Below, piece after piece: positions 1-27,504 of a stretch of DNA of 30,915 bases; the first letter of the stretch is position 1, and every line of letters begins with the position of its first letter. Below the pieces are notes generated by a model, which was not told where the DNA came from, did not search any database, and worked only from the letters and a program-made list of their open reading frames with translations. The stretch lies in NCBI RefSeq assembly GCF_003334335.1, contig NZ_QOWQ01000048.1; one strand, 5' to 3'. The translations under genes were made by a program, and so were the position numbers. The DNA comes from Escherichia coli (GTDB taxonomy: Bacteria > Pseudomonadota > Gammaproteobacteria > Enterobacterales > Enterobacteriaceae).

Positions 1-264
1 ATGAAGTTCCGGCTCGGTGGTTTCGAGGCCATAAAGTCGGCTTACATGGCCCAGGTGCAGTACAGCATGTGGGTGACACGAAAAGATGCCTGGTACTTTG
101 CCAACTATGACCCGCGTATGAAGCGTGAAGGACTGCATTATGTCGTGGTTGAGCGGGATGAAAAGTACATGGCGAGTTTTGACGAGATGGTGCCGGTGTT
201 CATCGAAAAAATGGACGAGGCACTGGCTGAAATTGGTTTTGTATTTGGGGAGCAATGGCGATGA
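1..264 (+). CDS. exo: Lambda-type exonuclease (Red-alpha), C-terminal fragment, 5'-partial at the window edge
   Basis: The 87-aa translation ending ...[11 protein letters not shown] matches the lambda Exo C-terminus as I recall it; the ATG at position 1 is internal to the real gene. Confidence 0.85.
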
Positions 265-443
265 CGCATCCTCACGATAATATCCGGGTAGGCGCAATCA
301 CTTTCGTCTACTCCGTTACAAAGCGAGGCTGGGTATTTCCCGGCCTTTCTGTTATCCGAAATCCACTGAAAGCACAGCGGCTGGCTGAGGAGATAAATAA
401 TAAACGAGGGGCTGTATGCACAAAGCATCTCCTGTTGAGTTAA
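255..443 (+). CDS. Small lambda orf60a-like protein
   Basis: A 62-aa ORF overlapping the exo 3' end, in the position and orientation of lambda orf60a. The true start may be the second ATG at 261. Confidence 0.65.
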
Positions 444-607
444 GAACGAGTATCGAGATGGCACATAGCCTTGCTCAAATTGGAATCAGGTTTGTGCCAA
501 TACCAGTAGAAACAGACGAAGAATTTCATACGTTAGCCACATCCCTTTCACAAAAACTGGAAATGATGGTGGCGAAAGCAGAAGCAGATGAGAGAGACCA
601 GGTATGA
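416..607 (+). CDS. Small lambda orf63-like protein
   Basis: A 63-aa ORF overlapping the previous ORF by 28 nt, the same arrangement as orf60a/orf63 in lambda. Confidence 0.7.
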   Translation: MHKASPVELRTSIEMAHSLAQIGIRFVPIPVETDEEFHTLATSLSQKLEMMVAKAEADERDQV

Positions 608-687
608 CAACCACTGAATGCATTTTTCTGGCAGCGGGCTTCATATTCTGTGTGCTTATGCTTGCCGACATGGGGCTTGTTCAGTGA
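604..687 (+). CDS. Possible 27-aa hydrophobic micropeptide (MTTTECIFLAAGFIFCVLMLADMGLVQ)
   Basis: Its ATG overlaps the orf63-like TGA stop in an ATGA arrangement (604..607). The sequence is a continuous hydrophobic stretch long enough for one transmembrane helix. Confidence 0.35.
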   Translation: MTTTECIFLAAGFIFCVLMLADMGLVQ

Positions 688-899
688 CACCTCAGCAGGA
701 AAACGCCCTTCGCAGCATTGCCCGTCAGGCTAATTCTGAAATCAAAAAAGCCAGACAGCAGTTTCCGGATAAAAACGTCGATGACATTTGCCGTAGCGTA
801 CTGAAGAAGCACCGCGAAACGGTAACGCTGATGGGATTCACACCGACTCACTTAAGTCTGGCAATCGGTATGTTAAACGGCGTCTTTAAGGAACGGTGA
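618..899 (+). CDS. Hypothetical protein in the orf61 region; start uncertain
   Basis: A 93-aa ORF in a third frame, followed by a hairpin plus T-run. It overlaps the micropeptide ORF, so which of the two is expressed is unresolved. Confidence 0.4.
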   Translation: MHFSGSGLHILCAYACRHGACSVTPQQENALRSIARQANSEIKKARQQFPDKNVDDICRSVLKKHRETVTLMGFTPTHLSLAIGMLNGVFKER

Positions 900-921
900 A
901 CATGAAAAGCAAAATCATCAG

Positions 922-945
922 GGAGCTACAGGCTCCTTTTTTATT
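922..945 (+). terminator. Intrinsic-terminator-like hairpin plus T-tract
   Basis: GGAGC-tacag-GCTCC followed by TTTTTTATT. Confidence 0.45.
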
Positions 946-997
946 ATTCGCATTCACCCTCAAGCGTATTAACCAACAATTCAGGGATTAATGGAAG

Positions 998-1219
998 ATG
1001 GCAGACCTCATTGATTCAGCATCAGAAATTGAAGAATTACAGCGCAACACAGCAATAAAAATGCGCCGCCTGAACCACCAGGCTATATCTGCCACTCATT
1101 GTTGTGAGTGTGGCGATCCGATAGATGAACGAAGACGCCTGGCCGTTCAGGGTTGTCGGACTTGTGCAAGTTGCCAGGAGGATCTGGAACTTATCAGTAA
1201 ACAGAGAGGTTCGAAGTGA
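998..1219 (+). CDS. TraR/DksA-family C4 zinc-finger protein (lambda Orf73-like)
   Basis: A 73-aa protein with CxxC...(17)...CxxC (CCECG...CRTCASC), typical of the TraR/DksA zinc finger. Its stop overlaps the next ORF's GTG (GTGA). Confidence 0.8.
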   Translation: MADLIDSASEIEELQRNTAIKMRRLNHQAISATHCCECGDPIDERRRLAVQGCRTCASCQEDLELISKQRGSK

Positions 1220-1467
1220 GCGTAATTCACTCTCAGGCACTGCGTGAAGCGGCAGAGCAGGCAATGCATGACAACTGGGGATTTGACGCGGACCTTTTCC
1301 ATGAGCTGGTAACACCATCGATTGTGCTGACACTGCTGGATGAACGGGAAAGAAACCAGCAGTACATCAAACGCCGCGACCAGGAGAACGAGGATATTGC
1401 GCTAACGGTGAGGAAACTGCGTGTTGAGCTGGAGACAGCAAAAATCAAAACTCAACGAGCAGCGTGA
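1216..1467 (+). CDS. Ea22-like protein, N-terminal part, ended by an in-frame TGA at 1465
   Basis: GTG start overlapping the upstream stop; the 83-aa product resembles the conserved Ea22 N-terminus (recalled, not searched). The same frame stays open after the TGA for 53 more codons, to a TAG at 1627..1629. Confidence 0.6.
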   Translation: MSVIHSQALREAAEQAMHDNWGFDADLFHELVTPSIVLTLLDERERNQQYIKRRDQENEDIALTVRKLRVELETAKIKTQRAA

Positions 1468-1765
1468 GTAGAAGGTGTTATCTCGGATGGAAGTAAGCGT
1501 ATTGCTGAACTGGAGGCCTGGGTTGAATACACAAGAGCTGCATACGTAAGAGCAAAAGACAAGGGAGATTTGATCAGAGTTATTACCCGACAACCAACGG
1601 GATTTTACGCTTACGTACCATGTAATTAGGAATCCTTGAAGTGGCAGCCTAACTGCGGATACACTGAAATGGCGATTTGGTAACATGTTTCGCACAAGGC
1701 TGTTACTACGCTTAAAGATAATCAGCCATGATTAAACGCTTTGTAAAAAGTAAAAGGAAATTACA

Positions 1766-2380
1766 ATGAAAAAATCAATACTAATTTTAGGGCTTACGTT
1801 AATTGTCTCATCTCAAATACCATCGGCAATGGCAAAAAATGAATCAAGACTTTGGGTTGTTGTTGATCGAACGGAAAGACATACCTGCCCTTCAAGTAAA
1901 TGTGGAGTGGCTGGGAAACTATTTTTCAGGGAAGGCGTAGATTTTCTAGAAAAAAAAGGTGAATGGGTTCGTATAACTGAGCCATATTCAGCCTCATGTG
2001 TGGGAGGGGAAAGCGAATATATTAAAGAAGGTAATAAATCCTGCACAAGAAAAAACGGAATCGTCAATGGCAAGTTTTCAGAATGGGTTAAACTTAGTGA
2101 TCTTAGCAGTGAAAGGCCATCAGATCCTGCTGAAAATGCGAGCGGAGATGATACTTTAATCAAAGGATCTGATGACTACCGTATATACAAAAAAGAGTTT
2201 TCTTCGGCAGCTAGGAAGTTAATAAACGAAGGGGTCTGCACGGAAAGCGACTTTAAGGAAATCGGAGGGTGGATGGCATCAAGCAATAAGGGGAAAAACA
2301 TCTATTTCACATATTGCGGAGGAATGACGTTGTCGAACAGAATATACCTAGACGTTAAAAGTGGAAAGACTTTTAGATAA
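1766..2380 (+). CDS. Hypothetical secreted (periplasmic) protein, 204 aa, AT-rich accessory gene
   Basis: SD AAGGAAA 8 nt upstream of the ATG. N-terminal signal peptide MKKSILILGLTLIVSSQIPSAMA with an AMA-K signal peptidase I site and no lipobox. The mature part has 7 Cys. Codon usage is visibly AT-rich compared with the flanking genes. Confidence 0.75.
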   Translation: MKKSILILGLTLIVSSQIPSAMAKNESRLWVVVDRTERHTCPSSKCGVAGKLFFREGVDFLEKKGEWVRITEPYSASCVGGESEYIKEGNKSCTRKNGIVNGKFSEWVKLSDLSSERPSDPAENASGDDTLIKGSDDYRIYKKEFSSAARKLINEGVCTESDFKEIGGWMASSNKGKNIYFTYCGGMTLSNRIYLDVKSGKTFR

Positions 2381-2451
2381 TATGATATTACCAATGACAG
2401 TATTAATTTAATGCCTCCATAGAATTATCTCTAGGAAGTATGTATAAGAAA

Positions 2452-2488
2452 AGCCCGCACAATGAGCTGCTGCGGGCTTTGTGTTATT
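2452..2488 (+). terminator. Intrinsic terminator downstream of the secreted-protein gene
   Basis: AGCCCGCA-(11-nt loop)-TGCGGGCT followed by TTGTGTTATT. Confidence 0.55.
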
Positions 2489-2673
2489 CGCCATATTTTA
2501 TGAAGCAAATACGACACTATAGATAATTAAGCGTTGCTGGTTGTCGATTCCTCACTCACTCCTGTTGATGGCTCTCTTCTTGTATGTGCCATTGAAGGGT
2601 AATATCGAGTAAAAAGATACCGGAAGTATCCGCGCCGCCATGATTGTCTTTCTCCTAATGCAGGAAAAGCAGA

Positions 2674-3012
2674 ATGGCTAAATCATCAGCAGAGCGCAAA
2701 GTCGATCAGAGAGCCAAGCAAGCATCATCCGGTATGCGTAAGCTGGAGCTTGTACTTGATGCTCAGGAAATTGAAATGCTGGATCGTAACTGAGCCACGC
2801 GCCGCTTCAGGCATGCGCCTTACGAGTTTGGTGAGTACATCGCGTTACTGAGCCGCCAGGATGATGCACGTGTGCGCTGGCGTATAAAATCGATCAGCAG
2901 AAAACGTTGCGGTAAGTGCGGCGAGAGAGTTCCTGTTAATTCATGCCCGTGTAATGGTGACTCACAATGCTGGGTGACCAAAGGCTGGCACGAAACAAAA
3001 TTAATGATATAA
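2674..3012 (+). pseudogene. Cys-rich small-protein ORF interrupted by a single in-frame TGA (2791..2793); possibly an ea8.5-type gene
   Basis: Frame 1 is open from 2644 to 3009 apart from the one TGA. The C-terminal half carries CGKC...CPC...C, a zinc-ribbon-like pattern. SD AGGAAA precedes the ATG at 2674. The ORF track shows no intact ORF of 60 aa or more on either strand here. Confidence 0.45.
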
Positions 3013-3040
3013 ATCTCTGTGACATGTCACGGAGGCGGCA

Positions 3041-3469
3041 ATGAAATTAGACCAGCAATATCTAAAAGATCTACTTATCGCATTCGAAAAAACTCATGGC
3101 CCTGACACGATGCTTAGTGAACTAGAGGATAATGGCTTTAATAGATATGACCAAAATTTTATTTTCCATATGCGATTATTATGCGACTACGAATTAATAG
3201 TCAGGGTTGATGGAAAACCTGGGTTCGGTCATATAATGTCCAACGAGTTAGGGGAAGGTGTTGGATATAGTTGGATCGAAGTACCACTGAGGTTGACAGC
3301 AAGAGGGCATGATTTTATTGCTGACTTGCGTCAAAAGGAGGTCTGGCAAACTATAAAAACAAACTTTAAGGATGAGGGAATTAGTACACTAATAAGTGTT
3401 TCAAAATCACTAGCAAAAGGCTTTGCAAGGAAAAAGATAAAAGATATTACAGGAATAGATATTGAATAA
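3041..3469 (+). CDS. Hypothetical cytoplasmic protein, 142 aa, AT-rich accessory gene
   Basis: Strong SD GGAGG 5 nt upstream. No signal peptide or transmembrane segment. Followed by its own terminator. No catalytic motif that I recognise. Confidence 0.7.
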   Translation: MKLDQQYLKDLLIAFEKTHGPDTMLSELEDNGFNRYDQNFIFHMRLLCDYELIVRVDGKPGFGHIMSNELGEGVGYSWIEVPLRLTARGHDFIADLRQKEVWQTIKTNFKDEGISTLISVSKSLAKGFARKKIKDITGIDIE

Positions 3470-3513
3470 TTCTTAGCATCAGCAACTACTGCCTTTGGTG
3501 GAAATTATATCTG

Positions 3514-3540
3514 AACTCGCTACGGCGAGTTTTGTTTTAT
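3514..3540 (+). terminator. Intrinsic terminator downstream of the 142-aa gene
   Basis: AACTCGC-tacg-GCGAGTT followed by TTGTTTTAT. Confidence 0.6.
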
Positions 3541-3551
3541 GGAGATGATAA

Positions 3552-3719
3552 ATGCACTTCCGAGTCACAGGTGAATGGAATGGAGAACCATTCAACAGAG
3601 TTATCGAAGCAGAGAACATCAATGACTGCTATGACCACTGGATGATATGGGCGCAGATAGCACATGCAGACATAACCAATATTCGAATTGAAGAACTGAA
3701 AGAACACCAAGCCGCCTGA
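3552..3719 (+). CDS. Hypothetical 55-aa protein upstream of xis
   Basis: GGAG 8 nt upstream of the ATG; the ORF ends inside a hairpin plus T-run. Confidence 0.4.
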   Translation: MHFRVTGEWNGEPFNRVIEAENINDCYDHWMIWAQIAHADITNIRIEELKEHQAA

Positions 3720-3732
3720 TGGCGGTTTTTTC
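3709..3732 (+). terminator. Terminator-like hairpin just upstream of xis
   Basis: CCGCC-tgat-GGCGG followed by TTTTTTC. In lambda-type logic this would be read through by antiterminated pL transcripts. Confidence 0.45.
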
Positions 3733-3758
3733 TTGCGTGTAATTGCGGAGACTTTGCG

Positions 3759-3977
3759 ATGTACTTGACACTTCAGGAGTGGAACGCTCGCCAGCGACGC
3801 CCAAGAAGCCTTGAAACAGTTCGTCGATGGGTGCGCGAATGCAGGATATTCCCTCCTCCGGTTAAGGATGGAAGAGAATATCTGTTCCACGAATCAGCGG
3901 TAAAGGTTGACTTAAATCGACCAGTAACAGGTAGCCTTTTGAAGAGGATCAGAAATGGGAAGAAGGCGAAGTCATGA
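3759..3977 (+). CDS. xis: Excisionase
   Basis: The 72-aa product MYLTLQEWNARQRRPRSLETVRRWVRECRIF... matches lambda Xis as I recall it; it overlaps the int start by 23 nt, as in lambda. Confidence 0.95.
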   Translation: MYLTLQEWNARQRRPRSLETVRRWVRECRIFPPPVKDGREYLFHESAVKVDLNRPVTGSLLKRIRNGKKAKS

Positions 3978-5025
3978 GCGCCGGGATTTACCCCCTAACC
4001 TTTATATAAGAAACAATGGATATTACTGCTACAGGGACCCAAGGACGGGTAAAGAGTTTGGATTAGGCCGAGACAGGCGAATCGCAATCACTGAAGCTAT
4101 ACAGGCCAACATTGAGTTATTTTCAGGACACAAACACAAGCCTCTGACAGCGAGAATCAACAGTGATAATTCCGTTACGTTACATTCATGGCTTGATCGC
4201 TACGAAAAAATCCTGGCCAGCAGAGGAATCAAGCAGAAGACACTCATAAATTACATGAGCAAAATTAAAGCAATAAGGAGGGGTCTGCCTGATGCTCCAC
4301 TTGAAGACATCACCACAAAAGAAATTGCGGCAATGCTCAATGGATACATAGACGAGGGAAAGGCGGCATCAGCCAAGTTAATCAGATCAACACTGAGCGA
4401 TGCATTCCGAGAGGCTATGGCTGAAGGCCATATAACAACAAACCCGGTCGCAGCCACTCGCGCTGCAAAATCAGAGGTAAGGAGATCAAGACTTACGGCT
4501 GACGAATACCTGAAAATTTATCAAGCAGCAGAATCATCACCATGTTGGCTTAGACTTGCAATGGAACTGGCTGTTGTTACCGGGCAGCGAGTTGGTGATT
4601 TATGCGAAATGAAGTGGTCTGATATCGTAGATGGATATCTTTATGTCGAGCAAAGCAAAACAGGCGTAAAAATTGCCATCCCAACAACATTGCATGTTGA
4701 TGCTCTCGGGATATCAATGAAGGAAACACTTGATAAATGCAAAAAGATTCTTGGCGGAGAAACCATAATTGCATCTACTCGTCGTGAACCGCTTTCATCC
4801 GGCACAGTATCAAGGTATTTTATGCGCGCACGAAAAGCATCAGGTCTCTCCTTCGAAGGGGATCCGCCAACCTTTCACGAGTTGCGCAGTTTGTCTGCAA
4901 GACTCTATGAGAAGCAGATAAGCGATAAATTTGCTCAACATCTTCTCGGGCATAAGTCGGACACCATGGCATCACAGTATCGTGATGACAGAGGCAGGGA
5001 GTGGGACAAAATTGAAATCAAATAA
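3955..5025 (+). CDS. int: Tyrosine integrase, lambda Int type
   Basis: The 356-aa product MGRRRSHERRDLPPNLYIRNNGYYCYRDPRTGKEF... is essentially lambda Int by recollection; its 3' end faces the att site. Confidence 0.97.
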   Translation: MGRRRSHERRDLPPNLYIRNNGYYCYRDPRTGKEFGLGRDRRIAITEAIQANIELFSGHKHKPLTARINSDNSVTLHSWLDRYEKILASRGIKQKTLINYMSKIKAIRRGLPDAPLEDITTKEIAAMLNGYIDEGKAASAKLIRSTLSDAFREAMAEGHITTNPVAATRAAKSEVRRSRLTADEYLKIYQAAESSPCWLRLAMELAVVTGQRVGDLCEMKWSDIVDGYLYVEQSKTGVKIAIPTTLHVDALGISMKETLDKCKKILGGETIIASTRREPLSSGTVSRYFMRARKASGLSFEGDPPTFHELRSLSARLYEKQISDKFAQHLLGHKSDTMASQYRDDRGREWDKIEIK

Positions 5026-5113
5026 TGATTTTATTTTGACTGATAGTGACCTGTTCGTTGCAACAAATTGATAAGCAATGCTTTTTTATAATGCCAACTT
5101 AGTATAAAAAAGC
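5026..5113. other. attL (B-O-P') junction: P' arm with Int arm-type sites and the 15-bp common core
   Basis: The core TTAGTATAAAAAAGC at 5099..5113 is the reverse complement of the lambda att core GCTTTTTTATACTAA. Arm-type sites ATTTTGACTG and ATAGTGACCT lie at about 5034..5053. Host B-side sequence AGGCTTCA follows the core. Confidence 0.85.
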
Positions 5114-5159
5114 AGGCTTCAACGGATTCATTTTTCTATTTCATAGCCCGGAGCAACCT

Positions 5160-6443
5160 GTGAACACATTTTCAGTTTCCCGTCTGGCGCTGGCATTGGC
5201 TTTTGGCGTGACGCTGACCGCCTGTAGCTCAACCCCGCCCGATCAACGTCCTTCTGATCAAACCGCGCCTGGTACCTCTTCTCGCCCGATTCTGTCGGCA
5301 AAAGAAGCGCAGAATTTCGATGCTCAACACTATTTTGCATCCCTGACACCAGGTGCTGCAGCGTGGAATCCTTCCCCGATTACCCTGCCTGCGCAACCTG
5401 ACTTTGTTGTCGGCCCGGCGGGCACTCAAGGTGTAACGCATACCACGATTCAGGCGGCGGTAGATGCGGCAATTATCAAGCGTACCAACAAGCGCCAGTA
5501 TATTGCCGTGATGCCTGGTGAGTATCAGGGAACGGTATATGTCCCTGCCGCTCCGGGTGGAATTACTCTGTACGGTACAGGTGAAAAACCGATTGATGTG
5601 AAGATTGGGCTTTCCCTTGATGGTGGCATGAGCCCTGCCGACTGGCGTCACGACGTCAACCCGCGCGGCAAATATATGCCAGGTAAACCAGCGTGGTATA
5701 TGTACGATAGCTGCCAGAGCAAACGCAGCGACAGTATCGGTGTTCTCTGCTCTGCGGTCTTCTGGTCACAAAACAATGGCCTGCAACTGCAAAATCTGAC
5801 CATCGAAAACACGCTGGGCGATAGCGTAGATGCAGGTAACCATCCGGCGGTGGCACTGCGTACTGATGGTGACCAGGTACAGATTAACAACGTTAACATT
5901 CTCGGTCGTCAGAACACCTTCTTTGTCACCAACAGCGGTGTGCAGAACCGTCTGGAAACAAATCGTCAGCCGCGTACGCTGGTGACCAACAGCTACATTG
6001 AAGGGGATGTGGATATCGTTTCTGGTCGCGGCGCAGTGGTGTTCGATAACACCGAATTCCGCGTGGTGAACTCACGTACTCAGCAAGAAGCGTATGTGTT
6101 TGCACCGGCTACGCTGTCCAACATTTACTACGGTTTCCTCGCCGTAAACAGCCGTTTCAATGCTTTCGGTGATGGTGTGGCGCAACTGGGCCGCTCGCTG
6201 GATGTTGATGCCAATACCAACGGTCAGGTGGTGATCCGTGATAGCGCCATCAACGAAGGTTTTAACACGGCTAAACCGTGGGCCGATGCGGTGATCTCTA
6301 ATCGTCCGTTTGCGGGTAATACCGGCAGCGTAGATGATAACGACGAAATACAGCGCAATCTGAATGACACTAACTACAACCGCATGTGGGAATACAATAA
6401 CCGCGGCGTGGGTAGTAAAGTGGTTGCAGAGGCGAAGAAGTAA
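5160..6443 (+). CDS. ybhC: Outer-membrane lipoprotein of the pectinesterase-like / acyl-CoA thioesterase family
   Basis: GTG start; lipoprotein signal peptide with lipobox LTAC; the 427-aa product matches E. coli YbhC. Confidence 0.93.
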   Translation: MNTFSVSRLALALAFGVTLTACSSTPPDQRPSDQTAPGTSSRPILSAKEAQNFDAQHYFASLTPGAAAWNPSPITLPAQPDFVVGPAGTQGVTHTTIQAAVDAAIIKRTNKRQYIAVMPGEYQGTVYVPAAPGGITLYGTGEKPIDVKIGLSLDGGMSPADWRHDVNPRGKYMPGKPAWYMYDSCQSKRSDSIGVLCSAVFWSQNNGLQLQNLTIENTLGDSVDAGNHPAVALRTDGDQVQINNVNILGRQNTFFVTNSGVQNRLETNRQPRTLVTNSYIEGDVDIVSGRGAVVFDNTEFRVVNSRTQQEAYVFAPATLSNIYYGFLAVNSRFNAFGDGVAQLGRSLDVDANTNGQVVIRDSAINEGFNTAKPWADAVISNRPFAGNTGSVDDNDEIQRNLNDTNYNRMWEYNNRGVGSKVVAEAKK

Positions 6444-6448
6444 GAGCA

Positions 6449-6660
<212 letters not shown>

Positions 6661-6676
6661 ATTCACATGGCGCTTT

Positions 6677-8938
6677 TTACATCTGACGGTTTTTATTGAA
6701 GTTAATCAAACTACCCGCCTTGATAATCTCGCGCTCTTCAGCAGTCAGACTTTCCATATAGAGCGTAATTTCCGTTACCGGCGCATCTTCATGGATCACA
6801 TAACCTTTAAACGTCGTACCCGGATTATCCAGCGCCGCTTTAATGCCAGGGATGTAAATGTAATCCCCCACTTCAAAGGTTGGTACTTCCGCCATTTGCA
6901 GCGGTAACATCCCCCAGTTGATGACGTTAGAACGATAGCGTTTAGTCGCGTACTCCTCGGCAATATTCGCCAGACCGCCAATCACACGCTGGCAGCTCGC
7001 CGCCTGTTCACGCGCAGAACCATCGCCTGGTTTCACCGCATAGACCATGCTGCCAATTTCAGTTTGCAGCGGATCAATATGCTCCTGACCAGCAATCTGC
7101 TTAATGCGCGCAAACACCTCTGTCAGCTCGCTGACATTCCCCGCCAGACGCTGATTTTCCAGCTCAGCAGTCGCTTTACTTCTGCTAACATAACCGGGAT
7201 CGCGGCGAGACAGGGTAAACTCCGCCAGACCAATCGGATTTGAACGATAAGAAGAGGTTTCACCGGAAGGAATCAGTTCGTCGGTGGTGGTCACTTCGTC
7301 GAGGATCTTCGAGCACACTTTCAGGACGATATTGTCAGTCAGCGCACCCAATTCCGGCCAGTCTTTAATGTTCGGCCCGTAAATCAGCGGTTGCTGAGTT
7401 GCCCCTTTCACAAAGCCCTGATAAACACGGTTTTTATACGGCGTTACATCGAAGGCGTACTCCGGCACGTTGTCCCAGCAATCAAGTTCGCTGGCAGAGG
7501 TTAAATAGCCACCGTTTGCCGCAGTCGCAGCGATAGAACGAGCGTCCATCAACGCCACCGCTGACATCTGCCCATTAGCTGGCTTAGAGCCTTCGCGGTT
7601 CGGGAAGTTACGCGTGGTGTGGCGAATACTCAAACCGTTGTTGATTGGCGTATCGCCCGCGCCAAAGCATGGGCCGCAGAACGCGGTTCTGATGATTGCG
7701 CCTGCGCCAATCAAATCTGCTACCACACCTTTTTTGGCGAGATCCATAAACACCGGCTGTGATGACGGGTAAACTGCCAGCGAGAAGGTGTCATTGCCAC
7801 AGGATTGACCGCGCAGTGCATTCGCCGCCGCGATGACGTTTTCGTAGTTACCGCCAGAACAGCCCGCGATAATCCCCTGCTGCACTTTCAGGCGACCATT
7901 TTCCACTTTATCCAGCAGCGAGAGTTTGGCTTTACCGTGCGCCACGCGTTCGGACTCAATTTCAATCTCACGCAGAATGTCGGTCAGGTTCTGGTTCAGT
8001 GTGTCGATTTCATACACGTTGCTCGGGTGGAACGGCAGCGCAATCATTGGTTTGATGGCGCTTAAATCAACGCTGATGCAGCCATCGTAGTACGCCATCG
8101 GTTGAGGGTTAAGCTGGCAGTAATCCTGGCCGCGACCGTGCAGCGCCAGCCAGTTATGGACTTCTTCATCGGTTTGCCAGACAGAACTTAAACAGGTCGT
8201 TTCAGTGGTCATCACGTCAACGCTGTTACGGAAATCGGTAGAGAGCGCGCTAACGCCCGGTCCAACGAACTCCATGACTTTGTTTTTGACGTAACCGTTT
8301 TTGAACACCGCGCCAATGATAGCCAGCGCCACATCCTGTGGCCCCACATACGGCGCAGGTTTTCCGGTCAGATGCACCGCAACCACGCCCGGATAGTCGA
8401 TATCCCAGGTGTCATTAAGCAGCTGTTTTACCAACTCACCGCCGCCCTCACCGACTGCCATTGTCCCTAATGCACCGTAACGGGTGTGGCTGTCTGACCC
8501 GAGGATCATTTTGCCGCCGCCTGCCATCATCTCACGCATATATTGATGGATGACCGCAATATGCGGAGGCACAAAAATACCGCCATAACGCTGGGCCGCC
8601 GATAAACCAAAAACATGGTCATCACCGTTAATAGTGCCGCCGACGGCGCAGAGTGAGTTATGGCAGTTGGTCAGCACATACGGCAGCGGGAAACGTTCCA
8701 TACCGGACGCTTTAGCGGTCTGTACAATACCAACAAAGGTAATATCGTGAGAGGCTAATGAATCAAACTTAATTTTAAGTTTATCCATATTTCCGGACGT
8801 ATTATGCGAAGAGAGAATAGACCAGGCAATAGTGCCTTTTTTGGCTTCTTCTTTTTTAATTTCGCCGGTGAAATGTTCTTCGGCAATTATTTCGTTATTA
8901 CTGGCGAGAAACACGCCTTTTTCAGATAACTTGATCAT
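6677..8938 (-). CDS. ybhJ: Aconitase-family putative hydratase
   Basis: Matches E. coli YbhJ. Start set at the internal ATG (MIKLSEK...), which has GGAG 8 nt upstream, rather than the ORF-track start at 8962. Confidence 0.9.
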
Positions 8939-10629: not shown

Positions 10630-11682
10630 TCAGGGAAGATAAACTTCACCGGAAAATATTTTTCTGGTCGTCCGAATAACAGATGCGCGTAACGTCGTGG
10701 CATCCTGACCTTCATTACTTAAATGAACGTCGAGCGCACCACTGGGGTGTTCAATATTGATATTGCCGTATCCTACAGAAGGGACGATTTGTCGGGTGAC
10801 GGTGCCTTCCAATGCACAACTACTGGAAATAGCAATAGCACCGGTTATCGCCAGCGCGCGATGGCAAGAATGCGGCATAAAATAACGCACATTAATTGCC
10901 CCGCCTTTCTGCGCTGGAGAAATAAGCACAGGTTTAGGGATAACCATATTACTGACATCACCTAAGCCCATTGCTTTACCCGCTTGTAGACGGATAGATT
11001 CAATGCGGGCTAATAATGCTTTGTCGGCATCCAGTTCCGCCGGTAATTCATAACCTGTTTTTCCCAGATATTCAGCCGGAATAATGACGACTGGCATCGC
11101 CATATCGATACAGGTCACCGGGACATCGTCAAAATAATCAATCTGATTATCAGTCGGGAAAACTTTTCCGGTTTTGGTTCCAGCGGCATTCAGGAAAGTG
11201 AGCGCAACCGGTGCGGCAGTACCCGGTACGCCGTCAATTCTGGCGCTACCCTCGTACTCGACAACACCATTTGGCGTTTGCACATCAGCTTCGATGAACG
11301 TACCCGTATTGACGTTGCGGATACGTACGCGAGTAACTGGCGAAGTCGCTGCAATCAAACCATTTTCAATGGCGAATGCCCCAACACCAGACAGCATATT
11401 GCCGCAGTTAGGCGTGGTATCGACACGTTGCTCATGAACGATTACCTGCGCAAACAGATAATCGACATCAGCACGCGGATCGCTGGAACGGCTAATAATG
11501 GCGACTTTACTGGTCAGTGGATTACCGCCGCCAATACCGTCAATTTCCAGATCGTTACCGGAACCCATAATTGCCATCAATATTTTATCGCGCTGCGTTT
11601 GATCTTCGGGTAAATGTTCCGCTAACAGGAACGCGCCCCTCGAGGTTCCACCTCGCATCATCACGCAGGGTATTTTTTTCAT
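10630..11682 (-). CDS. ybhH: PrpF/AcnD-accessory-family putative isomerase
   Basis: A 350-aa product matching E. coli YbhH. Confidence 0.9.
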   Translation of the reverse strand: MKKIPCVMMRGGTSRGAFLLAEHLPEDQTQRDKILMAIMGSGNDLEIDGIGGGNPLTSKVAIISRSSDPRADVDYLFAQVIVHEQRVDTTPNCGNMLSGVGAFAIENGLIAATSPVTRVRIRNVNTGTFIEADVQTPNGVVEYEGSARIDGVPGTAAPVALTFLNAAGTKTGKVFPTDNQIDYFDDVPVTCIDMAMPVVIIPAEYLGKTGYELPAELDADKALLARIESIRLQAGKAMGLGDVSNMVIPKPVLISPAQKGGAINVRYFMPHSCHRALAITGAIAISSSCALEGTVTRQIVPSVGYGNINIEHPSGALDVHLSNEGQDATTLRASVIRTTRKIFSGEVYLP

Positions 11683-11865
11683 AATAATGCCCTCAATTTA
11701 AAAACATAACTTATTGCGATATGGTTACATTAAGGGCAAAGCATCTCTAATGACTTTAGCTCAACGATTAATAACATTTTTTCATTAATTTAAGTTGGCT
11801 AAATGCAGTTAAAATTTTTAACGGCCAGCCACCCAAAATCGTCGCTTCCATTTTCCGGAGTAATA

Positions 11866-12819
11866 ATGAAGCATGAATTATCAAGTATGAAGGCATTTGT
11901 CATACTGGCAGAGTCCAGTTCGTTTAACAATGCCGCTAAATTACTCAATATTACGCAACCTGCATTAACGCGAAGAATAAAAAAGATGGAGGAAGATTTA
12001 CATATTCAACTATTTGAGCGTACAACTCGCAAGGTTACGTTAACAAAAGCAGGAAAAAGGTTGCTCCCGGAGGCGCGGGAATTAATAAAGAAATTCGATG
12101 AAACGCTTTTTAATATTCGTGATATGAATGCTTATCATCGTGGTATGGTGACGTTAGCGTGTATTCCGACCGCAGTATTTTATTTTTTACCGCTGGCAAT
12201 CGGTAAATTTAATGAGCTGTATCCCAATATTAAAGTGCGGATTCTGGAACAAGGCACGAATAATTGCATGGAATCGGTGCTGTGTAACGAATCAGACTTT
12301 GGCATAAACATGAACAACGTCACAAATTCATCCATTGATTTTACCCCACTGGTCAACGAGCCGTTCGTGCTGGCCTGTCGGCGTGACCATCCATTGGCCA
12401 AAAAGCAGCTTGTAGAATGGCAGGAGTTAGTGGGTTACAAAATGATTGGCGTACGCTCCTCCAGCGGCAACCGACTGTTGATAGAACAACAGCTGGCCGA
12501 CAAGCCCTGGAAGCTGGACTGGTTTTACGAAGTGCGTCATCTTTCGACGTCATTAGGACTGGTGGAGGCGGGACTGGGGATTTCGGCGCTTCCTGGCCTG
12601 GCAATGCCTCATGCGCCCTATTCTTCGATTATTGGTATCCCATTGGTGGAACCCGTTATACGTCGAACATTGGGAATAATTCGCCGTAAAGATGCCGTAC
12701 TTTCTCCAGCAGCAGAACGCTTTTTTGCCTTGCTGATTAATTTATGGACTGACGATAAAGACAATTTGTGGACCAATATCGTCGAACGCCAGAGACACGC
12801 GTTACAGGAGATAGGTTAA
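11866..12819 (+). CDS. ybhD: LysR-type transcriptional regulator
   Basis: Start at the internal ATG (MKHELSS...) with a GGAG SD. N-terminal helix-turn-helix. Divergent from ybhH. Confidence 0.85.
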   Translation: MKHELSSMKAFVILAESSSFNNAAKLLNITQPALTRRIKKMEEDLHIQLFERTTRKVTLTKAGKRLLPEARELIKKFDETLFNIRDMNAYHRGMVTLACIPTAVFYFLPLAIGKFNELYPNIKVRILEQGTNNCMESVLCNESDFGINMNNVTNSSIDFTPLVNEPFVLACRRDHPLAKKQLVEWQELVGYKMIGVRSSSGNRLLIEQQLADKPWKLDWFYEVRHLSTSLGLVEAGLGISALPGLAMPHAPYSSIIGIPLVEPVIRRTLGIIRRKDAVLSPAAERFFALLINLWTDDKDNLWTNIVERQRHALQEIG

Positions 12820-25755: not shown

Positions 25756-26808
25756 TTACCCGCGACGCGCTTTTACTGCATTCGCCAGTTGACGTAACAG
25801 AGCATCGGTATCTTCCCAGCCGATGCAGGCATCGGTGATGCTCTTACCGTAGGCCAGCGGCTCCCCGCTCTCGAGGCTCTGATTGCCTTCCACCAGATGG
25901 CTTTCCACCATCACGCCAATAATGGCCTTTTCGCCACCGGCAATCTGCTGGCAAACGTCAGCACAAACATCCATCTGCTTTTTGAATTGTTTGGACGAGT
26001 TAGCATGGCTGAAATCGATCATCACCTGTGCTGGCAGGCCTGCTTTGTTCAGCCCTTCTTTCACTTCAGCAACGTGCTTCGCGCTGTAGTTAGGCTCTTT
26101 ACCGCCGCGCAGAATGATATGGCAATCGCCGTTACCGCTGGTATTCACAATCGCCGAATGCCCCCATTTCGTTACGGACAGGAAGCAGTGCGGCGCACCG
26201 GCGGCATTAATGGCATCGATAGCCACTTTAATCGTACCGTCGGTGCCATTTTTGAAGCCGACCGGACAAGAAAGCCCTGATGCCAGTTCGCGGTGCACCT
26301 GCGATTCGGTGGTACGTGCGCCAATTGCGCCCCAGCTCATCAGGTCAGCGAGATATTGTGGGGTGATCATATCGAGAAACTCACCTGCCGCTGGCAGACC
26401 GCTGTCGTTAATATCAAGCAGCAATTTACGGGCTATACGCAGACCGTCGTTGATCTGGAAGCTATTATCCATATGCGGATCGTTAATCAGCCCTTTCCAG
26501 CCCACCGTGGTACGCGGCTTTTCAAAATAGACGCGCATTACGATTTCCAGCTCATCTTTCAGCTCTTCACGCAGCGCCAGCAAGCGAGTGGCATACTCTT
26601 TTGCCGCGACAGGATCATGAATTGAGCATGGGCCAATCACAACCAACAGGCGATCATCATTACCTTTCAGGATCTTATGGATCGCTTTTCGGACATGGGC
26701 AACCGTATTCGCGGCATTTTCAGTAGCGGGGAATTTTTCCAGCAATGCGACAGGAGGAAGTAACTCTTTGATTTCTTTGATGCGTAAATCGTCGTTCTGA
26801 TAATTCAT
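25756..26808 (-). CDS. aroG: Phe-sensitive DAHP synthase
   Basis: A 350-aa product matching AroG. Confidence 0.95.
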   Translation of the reverse strand: MNYQNDDLRIKEIKELLPPVALLEKFPATENAANTVAHVRKAIHKILKGNDDRLLVVIGPCSIHDPVAAKEYATRLLALREELKDELEIVMRVYFEKPRTTVGWKGLINDPHMDNSFQINDGLRIARKLLLDINDSGLPAAGEFLDMITPQYLADLMSWGAIGARTTESQVHRELASGLSCPVGFKNGTDGTIKVAIDAINAAGAPHCFLSVTKWGHSAIVNTSGNGDCHIILRGGKEPNYSAKHVAEVKEGLNKAGLPAQVMIDFSHANSSKQFKKQMDVCADVCQQIAGGEKAIIGVMVESHLVEGNQSLESGEPLAYGKSITDACIGWEDTDALLRQLANAVKARRG

Positions 26809-26878
26809 GTCTGTTCCAGTGTTGCCATACTTATCTTAGTGAATGCAATACTTCCAATCTATATCTTCCGTCAGAATG

Positions 26879-26896
26879 TGTAAACGGGGTTTTACA
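26879..26896. promoter_or_regulatory. TyrR box in the aroG promoter
   Basis: TGTAAA-cggggt-TTTACA, about 70 bp upstream of the aroG start. Confidence 0.7.
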
Positions 26897-27123
26897 CTAT
26901 GAACGGATTAATCCTGGAATTAGCAAGAAAAACGCCAGATTGTCGCGAAAAACGAGATCTCTCCTACAATTTCTAACTGTAACTCCTTTGTTTGTTAATT
27001 ATTTCAAGATTCTCTGCTGCGTTTCATAACCTGGCTGAAATCTTAAACCAATGCCTTATATTCACCTGCAAATGCACTGTTGGAAGAGGTTATCCGACAT
27101 AACGACCATAACAGGAGCATCCT

Positions 27124-27504
27124 ATGAAAATGACAAAACTGGCCACATTATTTCTGACTGCCACTCTAAGCCTTGCCAGCGGTGCCGCACTGGCTGCCGA
27201 TAGCGGAGCGCAAACTAATAACGGCCAGGCAAACGCCGCAGCTGATGCGGGCCAGGTAGCCCCTGACGCCCGTGAAAATGTCGCGCCAAATAACGTCGAC
27301 AATAACGGGGTAAATACCGGTTCTGGCGGCACAATGCTGCATTCGGATGGTTCTTCAATGAACAATGACGGAATGACCAAAGATGAAGAGCACAAGAACA
27401 CCATGTGCAAAGATGGTCGCTGTCCGGATATCAATAAAAAGGTACAAACCGGTGATGGCATCAATAATGATGTCGATACCAAAACCGACGGTACCACGCA
27501 GTAA
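27124..27504 (+). CDS. ybgS: Small secreted protein
   Basis: A 126-aa product with a signal peptide and a low-complexity Asn/Gly/Ala-rich body. Confidence 0.85.

Follow-up and report, generated by a model that had tools for sequence, protein, structure and literature searches.

An accessory replacement in the exo-xis region of a lambda-type Escherichia coli prophage carries two intact genes of probably separate origin

Replacement of lambda DNA between exo and xis

The first 5.1 kb of the DNA analyzed here, a 30,915-nucleotide stretch of an Escherichia coli contig (NZ_QOWQ01000048.1, assembly GCF_003334335.1; referred to as the window), is the left end of a lambda-type prophage that lies at the lambda attachment site, with the + strand of the window corresponding to the leftward pL direction of lambda. 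A blastn comparison with lambda (NC_001416) reveals that positions 1-1514 match lambda 31611-30094 with 97.0% identity and that positions 3504-5113 match lambda 29333-27724 with 97.9% identity, up to the attachment (att) core, in agreement with the lambda-like character that a first-pass annotation of the window had assigned to both flanks. Between the two matches, 1,989 bp (1515-3503, + strand) stand where lambda has 760 bp (30093-29334), and the lambda DNA lost to the replacement comprises the C-terminal two-thirds of ea22 and all of ea8.5. This segment is quite probably a composite accessory replacement in the exo-xis region that carries two live, independent cargo genes which are not partners: open reading frame (ORF) A (1766-2380), a putative envelope factor, and ORF-B (3041-3469), a putative modulator.

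Both ORFs are intact and lie on the + strand, and each start codon is preceded by a Shine-Dalgarno sequence (AAGGA, 8 nt before the ATG of ORF-A; GGAGG at 3031-3035, 5 nt before the ATG of ORF-B), as the first-pass annotation had described. That annotation had outlined an AT-rich accessory block at 1630-3551; the accessory replacement is real, but its true limits in the lambda comparison are 1515 and 3503. The proposal that the block is cargo that lambda lacks, situated within the known variable exo-xis interval, is confirmed by the same comparison, and absence from a near-identical relative, here lambda with flanks that are 97-98% identical, is one of the characteristics of morons. The guanine-cytosine (GC) contents of ORF-A (39.2%) and ORF-B (36.1%) are clearly lower than those of the lambda-like flanks (48.2% and 44.5%) and of the host DNA (50.9%), and only 0.1-3% of equal-size segments within the 30.9-kb window are as AT-rich as the two ORFs. 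The description as AT-rich therefore applies to both ORFs but not to the middle stretch (2531-3012), which has a GC content of 48.8% and does not deviate from the flanks. A repeat search of 1400-3700 returned short chance pairs only, with no flanking direct repeats and no insertion sequence (IS) ends that would mark transposition.

A terminator-like hairpin with a U-rich tail is located 3' of ORF-A (2450-2490, + strand; RNA folding energy dG -18.6 kcal/mol, z -2.8), which a consensus terminator scan of the + strand overlooked because its loop is longer than 8 nt. A second terminator-like hairpin with a U-run follows ORF-B (3513-3540, + strand; dG -11.9 kcal/mol, z -3.0). The second hairpin sits within the 3504-5113 lambda match, outside the insert, and is found 3' of ea8.5 in lambda; it is therefore part of the lambda backbone and not a terminator that ORF-B brought with it. 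The earlier statement that each gene has its own terminator may thus hold for ORF-A, but does not hold for ORF-B. A strict consensus scan detected no sigma-70 promoter on the + strand in 1200-4000. A weak cTGGCA-17-TATAAA element is present upstream of ORF-B, in the tail of the phrog_536 pseudogene described below, and is kept in three contexts. With no promoter detected and a second terminator that belongs to lambda, the classic moron signature that had been proposed for the block is incomplete. A search of window positions 1-5300 against Rfam (E ≤ 1) gave no match.

ORF-A, an exported protein with an SH3b-like fold

ORF-A encodes a protein of 204 residues that consists of a signal peptide (residues 1-23), an SH3b-like domain (approximately 27-110), a conserved RPxDPA linker, and a C-terminal domain (approximately 129-204). 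The Sec-type signal sequence (MKKSILILGLTLIVSSQIPSAMA/K, ending AMA/K) has no counterpart in ORF-B, in line with the earlier prediction of one secreted and one cytoplasmic product. The AlphaFold (AF2) model calculated from 36 homologues has a predicted local distance difference test (pLDDT) score of 90.3 and adopts an SH3b fold. Additionally, the Pfam family SH3_3 is matched at E ≤ 1e-3 by 16 of the 36 longer relatives of ORF-A (best value 9.3e-10). The cysteine pairs C41/C46, C78/C93 and C158/C184 are conserved, C78/C93 being lost jointly in two relatives, and ORF-A likely contains three disulfides. Many relatives carry a lipobox in place of the plain signal peptide; together with the paired cysteines, these lipoboxes fit a periplasmic location of ORF-A.

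Pfam searches at E ≤ 10 return only SH3_3 and LPAM_1 for ORF-A and nothing on the C-terminal domain of 20 relatives. A sequence search of the PDB with the ORF-A profile yields only marginal SH3 matches, apart from designed TIM barrels that were judged spurious, as they are sums of 6-10-bit repeats over residues 124-162.

The C-terminal domain, approximately 75 residues encoded by window positions 2150-2380, is characterized by the motif SDD(Y/F)...F..AA..LI..G.C...DF.E.GGW..S...YFTYCGG...NRIYLD..G. A profile of this domain retrieves 531 clusters (at 50% identity) among 1.84 billion representatives, and the domain is always located at the C-terminus, either as the only domain following a signal peptide, as tandem copies, or next to an SH3b domain that is itself preceded by ankyrin, zinc-ribbon or IalB modules. 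As judged from these sequences, it is a previously unannotated, autonomous exported domain. Full-length relatives of ORF-A in the AlphaFold database (AFDB) are all uncharacterized and come from Pseudomonas, Shewanella, many Vibrio, Rhodobacterales and Brucella.

Between E. coli haplotypes, ORF-A exhibits 8 synonymous versus 1-3 non-synonymous changes, which corresponds to a ratio of non-synonymous to synonymous rates (dN/dS) of 0.03-0.2, and 33 of 35 copies are intact. On this substitution pattern, ORF-A is evidently under purifying selection.

The SH3b domains of endolysins, lysostaphin and NlpC/P60 proteins are the obvious points of comparison. Unlike these proteins, ORF-A has no catalytic domain and instead contains a small unannotated partner domain; it also differs from the endolysin type in being predicted to be periplasmic in a Gram-negative host and stabilized by disulfides.

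ORF-B, a DUF2513 winged-helix protein

ORF-B encodes 142 residues and matches the Pfam family DUF2513 (PF10711) with an E value of 4.2e-10, residues 2-115 aligning to positions 1-100 of the 100-position model. PF10711 is present in 113 of 113 ORF-B homologues, and ORF-B also matches phrog_585. The structure model (pLDDT 93.2) adopts a winged-helix-turn-helix (wHTH) fold that is followed by C-terminal helices. This fold is shared with the MarR, PadR and HxlR regulators, but the identity of ORF-B to characterized regulators is only 8-20%. A sequence search of the PDB with the ORF-B profile gave nothing meaningful. Neither ORF-A nor ORF-B belongs to a well-characterized housekeeping family, an assignment that, according to the first-pass annotation, would have spoken against its proposal.

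DUF2513 relatives are widespread in prophages of Enterobacterales, where they lie at the boundaries between modules of early or delayed-early operons, namely ahead of NinB (5 loci) or TerS, beside DinI, or beside an exonuclease near int. In E. coli, 39 of 41 copies of ORF-B are intact. A literature search found no publication on DUF2513, PF10711, the phage Chlobot (see below) or the RefSeq protein accessions. DUF2513 is a common yet entirely unstudied winged-helix family of temperate phages, and any phenotype would be new.

Gene remnants and a conserved palindrome between the two genes

The stretch between ORF-A and ORF-B (2531-3012) consists of three gene remnants, all on the + strand, which the first-pass annotation had overlooked. 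The first is a dead internal fragment of a humD/UmuD-like gene (2531-2640) with an 87-91% DNA match to UmuD-like genes of the P1-like phages D6 and PhiR41_1; its translation, ALLVVDSSLTPVDGSLLVCAIEG*YRVKRYRKYPRR, aligns to residues 46-80 of the UmuD protein of a P1/P7-like phage-plasmid of Escherichia fergusonii. The second is the dead 3' tail of a NinX/DUF2591 gene (2616-2673), where the megablast match to phage TL-2011b begins at 2616, under the DUF2591 gene of that phage. By sequence, this tail is the start of the epsilon15/phiV10-type piece. The third (2674-3012) is a pseudogene of the phiV10 p55/epsilon15 gp49-type regulator, phrog_536, with PHROG matches to both halves. Like the phiV10-type gene, to which it is approximately 90% identical in DNA, it has a length of 112 codons; it differs in that a TGA at codon 40 (2791-2793) replaces a Cys codon conserved in the phiV10 and Cronobacter homologues, and in that it lies in the early-left arm of a siphovirus rather than before the terminase genes of a podovirus.

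Only 18 of 38 phrog_536 copies in E. coli are intact, the rest being disrupted, and dN/dS is approximately 1. The TGA is common to several distinct E. coli haplotypes in which the 72 downstream codons are still open, while about half of the copies have TGC; the shared TGA may be an ancient polymorphism that recombination has disseminated, or read-through of the codon may be tolerated. In RefSeq, the corresponding region of strain A14 is annotated as an Ea22-like pseudogene, the hypothetical protein WP_000748284.1, a "DNA repair protein, incomplete", an "internal stop" hypothetical protein, and the DUF2513 protein WP_000762730.1.

A perfect 12-bp palindrome, GTGACATGTCAC (3019-3030), is located directly ahead of the Shine-Dalgarno sequence of ORF-B and occurs once in the window versus 0.04 expected occurrences. 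In E. coli, Serratia, Cronobacter, TL-2011b and phiV10, the palindrome is conserved where phrog_536 ends, irrespective of whether DUF2513 follows, and it survives in Serratia prophages in which only a stub of phrog_536 is left. As RNA, it would form a 9-bp hairpin that buries the Shine-Dalgarno sequence of ORF-B (dG -10.8, z -2.8). It may serve as an operator for the ribbon-helix-helix (RHH)-like regulator, act as a hairpin in translation, or mark a boundary of recombination. The GenBank record of phiV10 starts and ends inside the same palindrome. The palindrome and the -10-like TATAAA were also considered as an autoregulated promoter-operator specific to DUF2513; because phiV10 and TL-2011b have the palindrome without DUF2513, this reading is unsafe and was dropped.

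The position of the palindrome raises the question of whether ORF-B is paired with phrog_536, which has an RHH-like N-terminus and a Cys-rich C-terminus, in a now broken regulatory or toxin-antitoxin-like module in which the palindrome serves as operator or translational switch. In E. coli, Cronobacter and many IMG/VR loci, DUF2513 is immediately preceded by the 3' end of phrog_536 and the palindrome; a phrog_536 remnant with the palindrome persists even in Serratia, where the upstream gene is unrelated; the predicted hairpin buries the ribosome-binding sequence of ORF-B; and phrog_536 has a weak RHH-type similarity to NF008671 (E 0.007-0.05). However, phiV10 and TL-2011b carry phrog_536 and the palindrome without DUF2513, and the upstream regions are unrelated in DUF2513 relatives at ≤55% identity. 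Moreover, roughly half of the phrog_536 copies in E. coli are disrupted and dN/dS is near 1, while ORF-B stays intact, which argues against an obligate partnership and strongly against a toxin-antitoxin relation. Such a pairing is unlikely.

The remnants also bear on whether the whole block is decaying junk without current function, in which the two frames are open by chance. Three of the five gene-derived pieces are dead, several strains have IS1 insertions or deletions, and the prophage itself is a remnant in some genomes. Against these observations stand the substitution pattern and the integrity of ORF-A, the contrast in intact copies between ORF-B and the adjoining pseudogene, the membership of both proteins in large conserved families, and the retention of the block in the plaque-forming isolate Chlobot, all of which make this explanation very unlikely.

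Mosaic origin of the segment

A 142-bp leader (1624-1765, + strand) travels with ORF-A. Leader and gene together (1624-2382) are 84.9% identical to positions 4090-4848 of the E. fergusonii P1/P7-like phage-plasmid locus, and this match begins just past the humD stop codon and ends at the stop codon of ORF-A. A P1-like donor of the left half is indicated by two findings taken together: the ORF-A cassette follows humD in E. fergusonii, and the window retains a humD fragment. As to the right half, the order intact phrog_536, DUF2513, TerS occurs in four epsilon15-like prophage loci of Cronobacter, where phrog_536 and DUF2513 adjoin each other as they do in the window; phiV10 and TL-2011b have the phrog_536 regulator gene without DUF2513.

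The block was accordingly put together from two or more foreign sources, through recombination that was illegitimate or relied on short homologies. Its left part (1624 to approximately 2640), with the ORF-A cassette and the humD fragment, matches the humD neighbourhood of P1-like phage-plasmids, and its right part (2616-3503), with the NinX tail, phrog_536 and DUF2513, keeps the order seen at the right end of epsilon15/phiV10-like prophages just before TerS.

The lambda hairpin 3' of ea8.5 (3513-3532, ACTCGCTACGGCGAGT) resembles the terminator after DUF2513 in Cronobacter phages (CCGCCGCTACGGCGG), and the right junction (3503/3504) is 10 nt ahead of the lambda hairpin at 3513. The likeness of the two terminators and the position of the junction suggest that a cassette may have been exchanged at similar terminators.

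ORF-A and ORF-B as independent cargo

The first-pass annotation had regarded the block as the best candidate in the window for one undescribed phage-encoded system. To act as such a two-component system, for example in defence or superinfection exclusion, ORF-A would be a periplasmic sensor or effector and ORF-B its cytoplasmic regulator. The two genes are adjacent and co-oriented, both are AT-rich and foreign in a known cargo site, and within E. coli ORF-A always occurs with ORF-B. However, the genes are found together only in copies of the block that are at least 94% identical (37 loci). A DUF2513 gene is present in none of 13 diverged ORF-A loci, which comprise Pseudomonas integrase islets, an Aeromonas prophage late region, a P1-like plasmid, a 5.3-kb ColRNAI plasmid and environmental chromosomes, and an ORF-A relative is present in none of approximately 52 diverged DUF2513 loci. 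The lack of co-occurrence in diverged loci, together with the different donors of the two halves (P1-like versus epsilon15/phiV10-like), indicates independent cargo and not a system.

Additional observations are consistent with this conclusion. A 660-bp interval with dead fragments and a terminator-like hairpin lies between the genes, and in strain YSP8-1, where IS1 stands in place of the whole of ORF-A, intact phrog_536 and ORF-B are kept. A search of defence-system profiles, as the first-pass annotation had suggested, was likewise negative: PADLOC-DB v2.0.0 gave no family at E ≤ 1 for ORF-A, ORF-B or either half of the phrog_536 pseudogene, and NCBIfam gave no match for ORF-A, ORF-B or the pseudogene pieces. 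It is extremely unlikely that the two genes form one system.

Several points nevertheless weigh against the preferred reading of two independent genes, an envelope factor and a modulator. The constant association of ORF-A with ORF-B within E. coli may reflect a lineage-specific functional link. The SH3_3 match of ORF-A itself has an E value of 0.047, which is below threshold, and its C-terminal domain has no Pfam family and no match among solved structures. Peptidoglycan binding by ORF-A and DNA binding by ORF-B are predicted from the folds only. The constraint on ORF-B is weakly shown, as its dN/dS of 0.12-0.68 is based on very few changes, the values of 0.6-0.7 against some haplotypes resulting from only 3 synonymous and 8 non-synonymous ones. 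Additionally, a weak or activator-dependent promoter, which a strict-consensus scan could overlook, may be present in the conserved leader of ORF-A or in the phrog_536 tail.

Proposed roles and expression of the two proteins

In the reading of independent cargo, ORF-A would be a Sec-exported periplasmic protein that serves as an envelope-level host-modulation or protection factor and is useful on its own. Such stand-alone usefulness would explain its single carriage by phages, phage-plasmids, integrase islets and small plasmids as well as the purifying selection. Judging from the fold, ORF-A would most likely attach to peptidoglycan through its SH3b domain and use its C-terminal domain to bind or block a partner that acts on the envelope. 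ORF-B, as a small winged-helix DNA-binding protein, would most likely be a non-essential transcriptional or DNA-binding modulator made in lytic development. Both genes are oriented in the pL direction and are probably expressed by N-antiterminated read-through from pL after induction or infection.

A more specific role would be that of an envelope protection factor, expressed in the lysogen and anchored to peptidoglycan, against incoming phage or against lysozymes, bacteriocins or type VI amidases. T4 Spackle, which inhibits the gp5 lysozyme, would be a parallel for the protection against phage. ORF-A is predicted to be exported, and its fold is typical of modules that target the cell wall. 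The gene has a terminator-like hairpin of its own behind it, experiences strong purifying selection, and is carried singly by many mobile elements, including a 4-gene ColRNAI plasmid and an Aeromonas moron site between Q and the lysis genes. By contrast, ORF-A is not a member, by sequence, of the periplasmic lysozyme inhibitors Ivy, MliC/PliC or LprI and resembles no PADLOC model. The automatic name "LprI N-terminal/DUF1311" on two AFDB relatives was not reproduced by Pfam searches with ORF-A and 20 relatives and was not used. The lack of a detected promoter does not favour expression in the lysogen, and homologues also occur beside housekeeping genes in environmental bacteria, where the ancestral role may be ordinary envelope physiology. 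The protective role is a tentative possibility.

A broader and more doubtful proposal is that ORF-A belongs to a so far undescribed class of periplasmic factors that act alone and are exchanged horizontally, in which an SH3b anchor would be combined with a new 75-residue disulfide-bonded domain that blocks envelope attack. A factor of this kind would explain the single-gene carriage by lambdoid prophages, P1-like phage-plasmids, Pseudomonas islets and the ColRNAI plasmid. If ORF-A is protective, a simple single-gene mechanism would join the prophage-borne exclusion and immunity functions, and a function would be available for an unannotated exported domain that occurs in more than 500 protein clusters.

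Relation to known accessory regions and distribution

The segment occupies the same slot and has the same pL-driven early direction as the lambda exo-xis region (orf60a, orf63, orf61, orf73, ea22, ea8.5), which is non-essential and modulates the lysis-lysogeny decision (PMC7093339, PMC8614690, PMC9239242). In contrast to lambda, ea8.5 is absent and ea22 is truncated here, and the replacing genes have no similarity to any exo-xis protein. A similar comparison can be made with Hendrix-type morons (lambda bor and lom, and the HK97 morons), which are also extra genes of deviating composition between conserved genes. ORF-A likewise has its own hairpin and moves as a single-gene cassette, whereas ORF-B comes from a multi-gene fragment and borrows the lambda terminator, and neither gene has an identified promoter. 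The main value of the analysis is negative and cartographic: the locus is a textbook case of how mosaic cargo is turned over between exo and xis of lambda, with donors traceable to P1-like and epsilon15-like phages, and the block is not to be regarded as a candidate for a defence system of two genes. What remains of most interest is ORF-A with its unannotated exported domain.

The block is common and already annotated, as hypothetical or DUF2513 genes, and is not rare. Among 5,426 complete E. coli genomes, ORF-A DNA is found in 130 and ORF-B DNA in 168, and the block as a whole is present in approximately 130. It is 97.9% identical in the isolated phage Chlobot, in which all its genes are annotated as hypothetical. 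A tblastn search of 50,697 phage records detected ORF-A in Chlobot only and ORF-B in Chlobot and one Klebsiella prophage-derived phage. IS1 is located in or beside the ORF-A region in several strains, for example ATCC 8739.

The block also occurs with an exo-xis stub on IncA-type and other large plasmids of Citrobacter, Enterobacter, Klebsiella and E. coli, which indicates that it has escaped its prophage context. On the Citrobacter freundii plasmid pA18-1 and in 11 E. coli plasmid matches, the exo-xis fragment with the block lies beside trkG, a lysis gene, IS5 and an ars operon.

More distant ORF-A homologues are located in a Pseudomonas integrase islet, in an Aeromonas prophage late region between Q and the lysis genes, and on the 5.3-kb, 4-gene ColRNAI plasmid, the remaining genes of which were uninformative. 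In Pseudomonas, the homologue directly follows a tyrosine integrase of 424-499 residues in an islet of approximately 5-6 kb that also contains recurring unknown genes of approximately 105, 130 and 337 residues and a phrog_129-like regulator; the islet is possibly a small, uncharacterized type of integrative element. PADLOC and PHROG searches with the Pseudomonas neighbours were uninformative except for one generic regulator, and neither phiV10 p55 nor the islet genes belong to a PADLOC family.

Flanking genes and other features of the window

Upstream of the segment, exo, orf60a, orf63, orf61 and a TraR-like orf73, and downstream of it, orf55, xis and int, are 97-98% identical to lambda. The TraR/DksA-like ORF of 73 residues (998-1219) is lambda Orf73, which is unannotated in NC_001416 and is ordinary lambda backbone here; Orf73 of lambda is known to reprogram host transcription (PMC9239242). 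The ea22 remnant (1216-1467, + strand) is an 83-codon N-terminal part. Its alignment to lambda ea22 reveals a 1-nt insertion and a 4-nt deletion ahead of the breakpoint, by which the frame is closed, with lambda homology running on to 1514; RefSeq labels it "frameshifted; incomplete".

The right-hand neighbour of the block is a homologue of lambda orf55 (3552-3719, + strand) and not xis, which had been taken to adjoin the block. The xis (3759-3977) and int (3955-5025) genes follow on the + strand, and the att core (TTAGTATAAAAAAGC, 5100-5114) marks the transition to host ybhC.

In the host part of the window, AT-rich spots (37-41% GC) are found at 11500-12400, which extends over the intergenic region between ybhH and ybhD and the beginning of a LysR-type gene, and at approximately 26600-27200. 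Additionally, positions 6490-6907 contain overlapping ORFs on both strands with repeated peptide strings (e.g., MRFVGRIRCASIASDNKCRM twice); these look like tandem intergenic repeats of the repetitive extragenic palindrome/bacterial interspersed mosaic element (REP/BIME) type downstream of ybhC rather than genes.

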